Source: Escherichia coli (lineage in GTDB: Bacteria > Pseudomonadota > Gammaproteobacteria > Enterobacterales > Enterobacteriaceae). From it: a stretch of DNA of 64,000 bases. Position numbers and translations under genes: made by a program. The stretch's first letter is position 1; each line of letters opens with the position of its first letter. Below are positions 25,551 through 63,967 of the stretch, piece after piece. The stretch is from the NCBI RefSeq assembly GCF_044324875.1, contig NZ_CP172185.1. One strand, given 5' to 3'. The notes below the pieces were generated by a model. The model was given only the letters and a program-made list of their open reading frames with translations, had not been told where the DNA came from and ran no database searches.

Positions 25551-25815
25551 AATATCGTACCGCTTAATAAACGTCTCTGTCTGAAAAGATGGGGGCGTTT
25601 TTATTTTGCGAGCAGCATTCCTGATTTTAAACGTGAACGCCGCTGGAAGAATTATCAAGTATAGAATGGCGTTGGGTGCTTGAGGCTGTCTGGCGTTAAG
25701 CATTCGCGAGGTTCCAGATGGACAAAAGCCCCAGGCGATATTTCTATCAACCTGAGGCCAGCGTTCGAACCTAAGCAATTCGAATGTTAGTCTCTTCTTT
25801 GCAGGGAGGCAAGAC

Positions 25816-25968
25816 ATGCTGACAAAATATGCCCTTGTGGCAATCATCGTACTGTGTTGTACAGTACTGGGATTCACGCTGATGGTAGGCGACTCGTTGT
25901 GTGAGTTGAGTATCAGAGAACGTGGTATGGAGTTTAAGGCAGTTCTCGCTTACGAATCGAAGAAGTAG
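25816..25968 (+). CDS. Hok/Gef-family type I toxin (50 aa)
   Basis: Not in ORF track (<60 aa). ATG 25816 preceded by GGGAGG; product [50 protein letters not shown] has the Hok architecture (single TM then DSLCEL..); followed by ACGCGGGG-loop-CCCCGCGT hairpin (25974..25995). Confidence 0.75.
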
Positions 25969-53696: not shown

Positions 53697-56258
53697 TTAT
53701 ACCAGACTCTTCAACCGATAAATCCACTCCAGCGCCTGGCGCGGAGTGAGTGAATCCGGGTCGAGATTTTCCAGCGCTTCCACCGCGGGCGAGGTTTCTT
53801 CCGGCACTGAAAGCAGCGACATCTGCGTGCCATCGACCTGTGTCGCGGCGGCATTCGGCGAAATGCTCTCCAGCTCGCGCAGTTTTTGCCGCGCACGCTT
53901 GATCACCTCTTTCGGCACACCTGCCAGTGCAGCAACCGCCAGGCCGTAGCTTTTGCTCGCCGCGCCATCCTGCACGCTGTGCATAAAGGCAATGGTGTCG
54001 CCGTGCTCCAGTGCATCGAGATGCACGTTGGCGACGCCTTCCATTTTCTCCGGTAACTGGGTCAGCTCGAAATAGTGGGTAGCAAACAACGTCAACGCTT
54101 TAATCTTATTCGCCAGATTTTCCGCGCACGCCCACGCCAGCGACAGACCATCGTAAGTGGACGTCCCGCGCCCAATCTCATCCATCAGCACCAGACTGTA
54201 CTCGGTGGCGTTATGCAGAATATTGGCGGTTTCGGTCATCTCCACCATAAAGGTTGAACGCCCGGATGCCAGATCATCCGCTGCTCCTACGCGCGTGAAG
54301 ATACGGTCGATCGGCCCAATCTCGACTTTTTGCGCCGGTACGTAGCTGCCGATATACGCCATCAGCGCAATCAACGCGGTCTGGCGCATATAGGTACTTT
54401 TACCGCCCATATTCGGACCGGTAATGATCAACATGCGACGCTGCGGCGACAGGTTCAGCGGGTTGGCGATAAATGGCTCGTTCAGTACCTGTTCAACCAC
54501 CGGATGGCGGCCTTCGGTGATGCGAATACCCGGTTTATCAATGAAGGTCGGGCAGGTGTAGTTCAGGGTATAGGCCCGTTCCGCCAGGTTCACCAGCACG
54601 TCGAGTTCCGCTAGCGCGCTCGCGCTCTGTTGCAACGCTTCCAGATGCGGCAACAGCAGGTCGAACAACTCTTCATAAAGCTGTTTTTCCAGTGCCAGTG
54701 CTTTGCCTTTTGAAGTGAGAACTTTGTCTTCGTACTCTTTTAGCTCTGGAATAATGTAGCGCTCGGCGTTTTTCAGCGTCTGGCGACGCATGTAATTGAT
54801 GGGTGCCAGATGGCTTTGTCCACGGCTGATCTGAATGTAATAACCATGAACCGCGTTAAAGCCGACTTTCAGCGTGTCCAGGCCAGTACGTTCACGCTCG
54901 CGGACTTCCAGACGCTCCAGATAATCGGTCGCGCCGTCAGCCAGCGCGCGCCACTCATCCAGCTCTTCGTTATAGCCCGATGCGATAACACCACCGTCGC
55001 GTACCAGCACTGGCGGTGTTTCGATGATTGCCCGCTCCAGCAGATCGCGCAGCTCGGCAAACTCGCCCATTTTTTCACGCAGCGCCTGTACCGGAGCGCT
55101 ATCGACATTTTCTAATTGCGCACGCAGCTCCGGCAATTGCTGGAAAGCGTGACGCATACGGGCCAGATCGCGCGGGCGAGCAGTTCGTAAAGCCAGACGC
55201 GCCAGAATACGTTCCAGGTCTCCGACCTGACGCAGCACCGGCTGTAGCCCGGCGGTGAAATCCTGCAATGCGCCAATAGTTTGCTGGCGCTCAAGTAACA
55301 CGCGGGTATCGCGCACTGGCATATGCAGCCAGCGTTTCAGCATACGACTACCCATCGGCGTTACAGTGCAGTCGAGCACTGAAGCCAGCGTATTTTCCGC
55401 ACCGCCCGCCAGGTTCTGGGTAATTTCCAGGTTACGACGCGTCGCGGAATCCATAATGATGCTGTCCTGCTCACGTTCCATAGTGATAGAACGAATATGC
55501 GGCAGAGTCGTACGTTGGGTATCTTTCGCATACTGCAACAGACAACCGGCAGCACAAAGTCCGCGCGGCGCGTTCTCGACGCCAAAACCGACCAGATCGC
55601 GGGTGCCAAATTGCAGATTCAACTGCTGGCGCGCGGTGTCGATTTCAAACTCCCACAGCGGACGACGGCGCAGACCGCGACGACCTTCAATCAGCGACAT
55701 CTCAGCAAAATCTTCTGCATATAGCAGTTCCGCCGGATTAGTGCGTTGCAGTTCTGCCGCCATCGTTTCCCGGTCAGCCGGTTCGCTCAGGCGAAAACGA
55801 CCGGAACTGATATCCAGCGTCGCGTAGCCGAAACCTTTACTGTCCTGCCAGATAGCCGCCAGCAGATTGTCCTGGCGCTCTTGTAACAGGGCTTCATCGC
55901 TGATGGTGCCTGGCGTAACGATACGCACAACTTTGCGCTCAACTGGACCTTTGCTGGTCGCCGGATCGCCAATTTGTTCGCAGATGGCAACGGACTCGCC
56001 CTGATTCACCAGTTTGGCGAGGTAGTTTTCCACCGCATGGTAGGGGATCCCCGCCATCGGGATCGGCTCTCCCGCCGAAGCACCGCGTTTGGTCAGTGAA
56101 ATATCCAGCAGTTGCGACGCGCGTTTTGCGTCGTCATAAAACAGTTCATAAAAATCACCCATCCGGTAAAACAGCAGGATCTCGGGATGCTGGGCTTTCA
56201 GCTTGAGATATTGCTGCATCATGGGCGTATGGGCATCGAAATTTTCTATTGCACTCAT
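53697..56258 (-). CDS. mutS: DNA mismatch repair protein MutS
   Basis: 853 aa; Walker [10 protein letters not shown]. Confidence 0.97.
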
Positions 56259-56504
56259 GGGGTTATGTCCGGTTCCCTGATATTAAATGGGGTGTGATGG
56301 TTTTTATTTTCGTTGTAATCACATAAGGCGCACATGATACCGGAGTTAATCATTTCAGGGGAAGAAGCGAACGGCGAGTTCTTGATGGTGATTCCGGGAA
56401 AGATGCTGTTTTGCAGCTTTTGCGTGATGCTTATGAAGCAAGTACGCAAAATTGTATCGGTTGGCTAACCCTTCTTCTTTAGAGTCATAGTGCCCTTTAA
56501 GATT

Positions 56505-56527
56505 AAGTTGTAATATAAATGCATCTT
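56505..56527. promoter_or_regulatory. Candidate NsrR operator (AAGTTGTAATA-T-AAATGCATCTT) upstream of ygbA
   Basis: Right half matches the NsrR half-site AAATGCATCTT exactly, left half 8/11; 18 bp upstream of the ygbA ATG. Confidence 0.5.
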
Positions 56528-56544
56528 AATGAGATGGAGGCAGC

Positions 56545-56889
56545 ATGTCCGGCAAGCGTATCTCTCGTGAAAAACTGACGATTAAAAAAATGATCGATCT
56601 TTATCAAGCGAAATGCCCGCAGGCGTCAGCGGAGCCGGAGCATTATGAGGCGTTGTTTACTTACGCGCAAAAGCGGCTGGATAAATGTGTGTTCGGCGAA
56701 GAGAAACCAGCCTGTAAGCAGTGTCCGGTGCACTGTTACCAGCCTGCAAAGCGTGAAGAGATGAAACAGATTATGCGTTGGGCTGGGCCGCGAATGCTGT
56801 GGCGTCATCCGATCTTAACCGTGCGTCATCTCATCGATGACAAGCGTCCGGTGCCGGAGTTGCCAGAAAAATATCGTCCAAAGAAATAA
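56545..56889 (+). CDS. ygbA: Nitrosative-stress-induced protein YgbA
   Basis: 114 aa, Cys-rich; RBS GGAGG; position next to mutS. Confidence 0.85.
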   Translation: MSGKRISREKLTIKKMIDLYQAKCPQASAEPEHYEALFTYAQKRLDKCVFGEEKPACKQCPVHCYQPAKREEMKQIMRWAGPRMLWRHPILTVRHLIDDKRPVPELPEKYRPKK

Positions 56890-56927
56890 ATCTGCCGGAG
56901 AGCCATACTCTCCGGCAAATAAGGCGC

Positions 56928-57356
56928 TTACGCTTTGGTGGCAATCAGGATGGCTGATGCTTTGATCAATGCAATAACGCGCGAGCCAGTGGTGAGTTTC
57001 ATTTCATCCTGACTTTCATTTGTTACCACTGCCACAATTTCAAAACCCGCATCCGTTTTGATATGGACAGTGGCGTTCACTGCTCCTTCGGTGATTGTCG
57101 ACACGCTGCCAGCAAACTGGTTGCGAGCAGAGAATTTCAGTCCACAGTCTTCCGTTGCCAGCGTTACCCACGGGGCTTTAATCAGGGCAATCGCTTCTTT
57201 CCCTTTCGCCAGACCCAGCGCTTGCTGGCTGCTGTGAGTCACAATTGCCACCAGCTTTGCACCACCTGCCAGCGTCAGTTCTACTTCATCATTCACAGCG
57301 CCCATTGCTACTGCGCTAACTGTTCCGGTTAATTGATTTCTTGCTGAAACTGCCAT
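56928..57356 (-). CDS. Molybdate-binding Mop protein (tandem TOBE domains)
   Basis: ORF 56928..57395; start set at ATG 57356 (MAVSARNQLTGTVS) after AAGGAGG; two repeated TOBE units (ARNQL/F.G.V..I..GAVN..V). Confidence 0.8.
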   Translation of the reverse strand: MAVSARNQLTGTVSAVAMGAVNDEVELTLAGGAKLVAIVTHSSQQALGLAKGKEAIALIKAPWVTLATEDCGLKFSARNQFAGSVSTITEGAVNATVHIKTDAGFEIVAVVTNESQDEMKLTTGSRVIALIKASAILIATKA

Positions 57357-63381: not shown

Positions 63382-63843
63382 ATGACTATTTGGGAAATAA
63401 GCGAGAAAGCCGATTACATCGCACAGCGGCATCGTCGCCTACAGGACCAGTGGCACATCTACTGCAATTCGCTGGTTCAGGGGATCACGTTATCGAAAGC
63501 GCGCCTGCATCACGCCATGAGCTGCGCGCCGGACAAAGAACTCTGTTTCGTCCTTTTTGAACATTTTCGTATTTACGTCACCCTGGCGGATGGCTTTAAC
63601 AGCCACACCATCGAGTATTACGTCGAAACAAAAGATGGTGAAGACAAACAGCGGATTGCGCAGGCGCAACTGAGCATTGACGGCATGATTGATGGCAAGG
63701 TCAACATCCGCGATCGCGAACAGGTTCTGGAACACTATCTCGAAAAAATCGCTGGCGTTTACGACAGCTTATACACCGCCATTGAAAACAATGTGCCGGT
63801 GAATTTAAGCCAACTGGTAAAGGGACAAAGCCCGGCAGCATGA
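63382..63843 (+). CDS. hycA: Formate hydrogenlyase regulatory protein HycA
   Basis: 153 aa; divergent from hypA. Confidence 0.93.
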   Translation: MTIWEISEKADYIAQRHRRLQDQWHIYCNSLVQGITLSKARLHHAMSCAPDKELCFVLFEHFRIYVTLADGFNSHTIEYYVETKDGEDKQRIAQAQLSIDGMIDGKVNIRDREQVLEHYLEKIAGVYDSLYTAIENNVPVNLSQLVKGQSPAA

Positions 63844-63967
63844 GCTGAGGCTTTGCCCGTTTTGCAGGCGTTACGCCTGTTTGGGGATGGGCGTGTCGAT
63901 GAGTGTCGAAAATGACATTTCATCGGCATGTTTTCGTCAAAAATGACAATCACCTGAGGAATGCCTG

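Follow-up and report, generated by a model that had tools for sequence, protein, structure and literature searches.

Genomic context of ygbA

The DNA immediately upstream of ygbA raises the question of whether this gene is under the control of the repressor NsrR in the Escherichia coli strain analysed, and how operator and promoter are placed relative to one another. The window, meaning the whole 64-kb stretch of DNA that was analysed, shows at this locus the order mutS (−), a 286-bp intergenic region, ygbA (+), a TOBE-domain gene (−) and fhlA (−). The ORF of mutS covers 53697..56258 on the minus strand. The regulated gene, ygbA, was found as an ORF on the plus strand at 56545..56889, annotated as ygbA in RefSeq and matching Pfam PF11756 (YgbA_NO) with E=5e-41. 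It encodes a small cysteine-rich protein of 114 aa, compared to 117 aa in K-12. The 1.3 kb tested around the locus is 100% identical to E. coli isolate AF40 (NZ_OZ547043).

Between ygbA and fhlA, a gene with two TOBE domains of the molybdate-binding type is located on the minus strand (56928..57356; Pfam PF03459, E=9e-35). This arrangement was observed in approximately 1888 of 5426 E. coli genomes; K-12 lacks the TOBE gene and has a fhlA-ygbA gap of 36 bp. The convergent ygbA and TOBE genes are separated by a terminator-like GC-rich hairpin of 14 pairs (56890..56920, assigned to neither strand), with a T-run on the minus strand side only. Transcription from both genes probably stops at the hairpin, which looks like the intrinsic terminator of the TOBE gene and serves ygbA at best as a stop without a U-tract.

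Two further elements were noted in the window. A small ORF on the plus strand in the mutS-ygbA intergenic region (56334..56468) is annotated in RefSeq as ‘hypothetical protein’ with a length of 44 or 59 aa, is marked as frameshifted or left unannotated in other strains and matches no Pfam family. Most likely this ORF does not represent a genuine gene. At 25674..25831 on the plus strand, a match to the sok antitoxin RNA (Rfam RF01794, 111.7 bits, E=1e-24) indicates a chromosomal hok/sok-type toxin-antitoxin locus.

The inverted repeat upstream of ygbA

An earlier note on this DNA had placed an NsrR-type repeat of the 11-1-11 kind at 56505..56527, and direct reading of the sequence showed both the letters and the coordinates to be exact. 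The site, AAGTTGTAATA-T-AAATGCATCTT, is an inverted repeat of two 11-bp motifs around a 1-bp spacer, as is characteristic of NsrR operators, and is not assigned to a strand. Its outer palindrome arms were also found by an inverted-repeat search. The left half-site AAGTTGTAATA covers 56505..56515, the spacer T is at 56516 and the right half-site AAATGCATCTT covers 56517..56527. Seventeen nucleotides separate the operator from the ygbA ATG at 56545, placing its final base at −18 relative to that codon.

The two half-sites are of unequal quality. Compared to the NsrR half-site consensus AAxATGCATTT, as quoted from Partridge et al. 2009, the right half-site (reverse complement AAGATGCATTT) is a perfect match at 11/11, as the earlier note had stated. 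The 8/11 given there for the left half does not hold under a strict count, which yields 7/11 against AAGATGCATTT; 8/11 is reached only when A or T is permitted at position 4, a tolerance that is supported by published NsrR sites. This degenerate half retains the NsrR-type bases A1, A2, G6, T7 and A8, and deviates at positions 9 and 11.

Identity with the described ygbA site

The NsrR site reported for ygbA in strain CFT073, AAGGTGCATTTATATTACAACTT (Mehta et al. 2015, Table 4), differs in its reverse complement by one base from the window, which has T instead of C at position 20, a change towards the consensus. The K-12 ortholog, AAGATGTAATATAAATACATCTT, lies just as far from the corresponding start codon. 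Locus, 23-bp frame and distance to the start codon are thus shared between the three strains, with the window matching the CFT073 and K-12 sites at 22/23 and 21/23 positions respectively. Unlike those two, the window allele combines T at position 20 with G at position 17, resulting in the perfect right half-site.

The earlier note had counted ygbA among the members of the NsrR regulon, and the literature agrees. Rodionov et al. (2005) already named ygbA as an NsrR target, based on a communication from Spiro, and Bodenmiller and Spiro (2006) are cited for the K-12 ygbA site. In K-12, ygbA is reported to be NsrR-regulated and its promoter to be bound by NsrR in ChIP-chip (Partridge 2009, as cited in Mehta et al. 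2015). In an nsrR mutant of Salmonella, ygbA mRNA is raised 31.8-fold, and NsrR- and NO-dependent regulation of ygbA is documented in both E. coli and Salmonella. ChIP-seq of NsrR in CFT073 missed the ygbA site, which was regarded by the authors as a false negative (Mehta et al. 2015). The text of the same paper lists ygbA among the most induced genes; its Table 1, in the version consulted, does not contain ygbA by name. The regulator itself is encoded outside the 64-kb window, and all but one of 5426 complete E. coli genomes (5425) carry nsrR at an identity of at least 95%. The repeat at 56505..56527 is the NsrR operator that had already been described for ygbA, and there is nothing new in the site itself.

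Weight-matrix analysis

A palindromic position weight matrix (PWM) was constructed from 24 published 11-1-11 sites (Mehta et al. 2015, Table 4). The ygbA site and the hycB site, the latter also located within the window, were left out of the training set. Upon scanning the approximately 64,000 positions of the window, the ygbA site scored 23.1 bits and ranked first, followed by one match of 14.1 bits and no other above 10.3 bits. The same ranking was obtained with a matrix made from ChIP-positive sites alone, and the ygbA site outscores 19 of the 24 published sites in the training set. According to the exact score distribution, a score of 23.1 bits corresponds to P=8e-9, equivalent to about 0.0005 expected matches per 64 kb or 0.04 per genome. 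When 200 windows were simulated with a first-order Markov model, matches of 23.1 bits or more occurred at a rate of 0.005 per window. A score below the PWM threshold, which had been named beforehand in the earlier note as an outcome that would speak against the operator, was therefore not what the scan returned. The two halves score unequally when taken singly: the right half-site reaches 15.66 bits, the maximum possible (P=2e-7), and the left half-site 7.15 bits (P=1e-3), which is weak alone.

Conservation across the Enterobacteriaceae

A search with the YgbA protein yielded 80 loci from distinct enterobacterial species, in genera including Escherichia, Citrobacter, Salmonella, Enterobacter, Klebsiella, Raoultella, Kluyvera, Leclercia and Lelliottia. 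In 80/80 species, the top match to the matrix in the 300 bp upstream of the gene was situated 12–22 nt from the ygbA ATG. The median of these scores was 20.2 bits, and the 1-bp spacing was retained in every species. The operator is thus conserved at orthologous ygbA promoters. In the site-anchored sequences, columns of the site carried 1.41 bits of information on average, versus 0.21 for those of the 60 bp upstream. Since anchoring on the matrix match could inflate this figure, a plain gapped MAFFT alignment of 22 genera was also built without use of the PWM. Outside the region of the start codon, this alignment had invariant columns only within the 23 bp of the operator, at window positions 56506, 56510–56512, 56515, 56516, 56520, 56522, 56526 and 56527.

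At the positions required by NsrR, the conservation is symmetric, with A1 A2 ... G6 Y7 A8 on the left mirrored by T16 R17 C18 ... T22 T23 on the right. In the left half, A1, A2 and G6 are invariant in 80–81 of 81 sequences. Two further positions are constant in a manner that NsrR does not ask for: position 11 is A in 80/81 sequences, where the NsrR motif prefers T, and position 12, the uninformative spacer of the NsrR site, is T in 81/81.

These data bear on the possibility that NsrR binds mainly through the perfect right half, the left half being promoter sequence that contributes little to binding. The difference in score between the halves (15.66 versus 7.15 bits) is in line with this, as is a report that single 11-bp motifs are functional as NsrR sites (Partridge 2009, as cited by others). 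On the other hand, A1, A2 and G6 conform to the NsrR consensus and lie outside the −10 hexamer described below, and the canonical spacing is kept throughout the species sampled. Binding mainly by the right half is consequently considered unlikely, and an operator made up of both halves is preferred.

Predicted core promoter

The pattern TAnnAT occupies site positions 7–12 with little variation, the four bases being found in 81 (T), 81 (A), 80 (A) and 81 (T) of 81 sequences. An invariant TAnnAT, with T at −12, A at −11 and T at −7, is what characterises the −10 hexamer of sigma-70 promoters. In the window it reads TAATAT (56511..56516, plus strand), has these three bases and would be formed by the left half-site together with the spacer base. 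Exactly 17 bp upstream of TAnnAT, a (T/C)TG motif was observed, the G of which is conserved in 75/81 sequences and is found at 56490 in the window. It belongs to a weak putative −35 hexamer, TAGTGC (56488..56493, plus strand), that matches the consensus at 2/6 positions with a spacing of 17 bp; only its G is conserved, and this base is nearly invariant in the MAFFT alignment. Transcription is predicted to start at the A at 56523 on the plus strand, 7 nt past the −10 hexamer, and the leader would then measure about 22 nt. The A at this position shows almost no variation, either among the 81 sequences or in the MAFFT alignment. A Shine-Dalgarno sequence, GGAGG, was read directly at 56536..56540 on the plus strand, where a G-rich block is conserved.

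From the invariant TAnnAT and the conserved G 17 bp upstream, we infer that the core promoter of ygbA is embedded in the operator, with a start near 56523. The weakness of the left half-site would then apparently be due to the double use of positions 7–12 as a −10 hexamer. The proposal in the earlier note that the NsrR site overlaps the ygbA promoter gains support from the −10-like hexamer inside the site, the overlap itself being predicted on the basis of sequence features that include a −35 hexamer of 2/6. The operator lies in the regulatory region of the gene, at or near a predicted core promoter with a putative −10. Scanning 56200..57000 for consensus promoters returned no sigma-70 promoter, because the −35 hexamer of ygbA matches at only two of six positions, and a search of Cappable-seq supplements for a ygbA transcription start returned no entry.

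Two other assignments were considered and rejected. TATAAA (56514..56519) was discarded as a −10 hexamer, since it ends in A in almost every species, whereas T is expected at −7. An overlapping pseudo half-site upstream, AAGATTAAGTT (56499..56509), which scores like the left half (7.1 bits) and forms a shifted palindrome, was not included in the operator because it is unconserved across genera and even within E. coli.

The invariant TAnnAT and the conserved G of the −35 region, in or near the block, could also be taken to mean that the conserved block is simply the core promoter of ygbA (−10 hexamer, discriminator and start) and that its resemblance to an NsrR site is incidental, with no repressor involved; the lack of an NsrR peak at ygbA in the CFT073 ChIP-seq points in the same direction. 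This is very improbable. Both arms carry invariant bases outside the promoter elements, namely AA at positions 1–2 and TT at 22–23, as well as G6 and C18, and these symmetric bases, together with the reported nsrR phenotype, show that the block is not merely a promoter. The PWM score, with its P=8e-9, argues against an incidental resemblance too, as do the NsrR-dependent regulation and ChIP-chip binding reported in the literature. A site that would serve as NsrR operator and promoter at once is the reading retained.

Comparison with other NsrR sites

The operator of ytfE, AAGATGCATTTAAAATGCATCTT, is built on the 11-1-11 plan as well and has a right half identical to that of ygbA (AAATGCATCTT). 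The ytfE site is a near-perfect palindrome of 31.6 bits, whereas the left half of the ygbA site deviates at positions 7, 9 and 11, resulting in 23.1 bits. The hmpA site NSRRB of Vibrio vulnificus is likewise a single site of the 11-1-11 type on the core promoter and start, with repression until the Fe-S cluster is lost according to the literature; for ygbA, the promoter overlap is predicted. The two differ in position: the V. vulnificus footprint, mapped from −2 to +18, lies downstream of the −10 hexamer, whereas at ygbA the protein would extend from about −18 to +5 and cover it.

A second site in the window, AAATGACATTTCATCGGCATGTT at 63910..63932, is the second-best match to the same matrix and is identical to the ‘hycB’ site that was ChIP-seq positive in CFT073 (Mehta et al. 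2015, Table 4). The match falls just past hycA (63382..63843) and before hycB. With 14.1 bits it is much weaker than the ygbA site, and in its place between the two genes it is not at an obvious core promoter.

Proteins of the Rrf2 family recognise AT-rich inverted repeats of comparable size, so the repeat upstream of ygbA might be the operator of another regulator, such as the Rrf2 protein IscR, and not of NsrR. CC and GG dinucleotides define the IscR type 2 motif, and on direct reading the site contains neither. It also scores 23 bits against an NsrR-specific matrix of ChIP-seq sites, and in Salmonella ygbA is reported to respond to deletion of nsrR. There is hardly any likelihood left for a different regulator, and NsrR is kept as the protein bound.

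Allelic variation within E. coli

Operator alleles were found by sampling across identity classes and counted by exact 30-mer searches in 5426 genomes. Four alleles were obtained, jointly covering 96% of the genomes, with one chromosomal copy each. The K-12 allele (AAGATGTAATATAAATACATCTT, 22.5 bits) was present in 2111 genomes, a fourth allele (AAGTTGTAATATAAATACACCTT, 21.0 bits) in 1300, the CFT073 allele (AAGTTGTAATATAAATGCACCTT, 21.8 bits) in 1120 and the window allele (AAGTTGTAATATAAATGCATCTT, 23.1 bits) in 681. The latter is the rarest of the four main alleles and has the top PWM score; O157:H7 strains are among its carriers. The alleles differ only at positions 4 (A/T), 17 (G/A) and 20 (T/C), all of which are variations tolerated by the motif. 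TAATAT does not change, and more variation is seen in the flanks. As a separate observation, the 91-bp segment 56470..56560 is unusually polymorphic within E. coli, with 1790 of the 5426 genomes sharing any exact 28-mer with it; within it, the operator varies at three positions.

With this, a chance match, for which the AT-rich intergenic region and the degenerate left half might plead, can be set aside as next to impossible, given the 0.0005–0.005 matches of this quality expected per 64 kb, the orthologous position in 80 species and the four alleles, nearly identical to each other, of which one or another is carried by 96% of the 5426 E. coli genomes.

A more speculative interpretation concerns the alleles themselves. 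The left half, in which NsrR site and −10 hexamer would be fused, may be frozen across the Enterobacteriaceae, and the alleles may form an affinity series that sets the NO threshold of ygbA for each lineage. This is put forward tentatively and is rather doubtful. If true, the allele of the window and O157-type strains would repress tightest, and that of the CFT073 type would be weak enough to evade ChIP-seq.

Proposed regulation of ygbA

In conclusion, 56505..56527 very probably is the NsrR operator of ygbA, with a left half that would double as −10 hexamer, and is likely to act by promoter occlusion and release upon NO. NsrR, a NO-sensing repressor of the Rrf2 family carrying an iron-sulfur cluster, would control ygbA through this operator. 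A dimer of holo-NsrR is expected on the 11-1-11 repeat, where it would cover the core promoter from about −18 to +5 and exclude RNA polymerase. Damage to the iron-sulfur cluster by NO would remove NsrR from the DNA, allowing ygbA to be transcribed from approximately 56523. The match, its significance and its conservation are results of this study; expression dependent on NsrR and NO, as well as binding in K-12, is taken from the literature. The −10 and −35 hexamers, the start and the occlusion are predictions.

The identity of the operator was known, and what is added is modest: a conserved −10 hexamer that appears to be embedded in it, and a polymorphism of four alleles. For the strain analysed, the finding implies that the standard NO-responsive control of ygbA is kept, and its value is mainly that of a correct annotation. 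An operator and a promoter that would share the same bases in 80 species offer a compact example of such an arrangement, from which a transcription start is predicted. Within E. coli, the four common operator alleles may provide a natural series relating the sequence of an NsrR site to the strength of repression.
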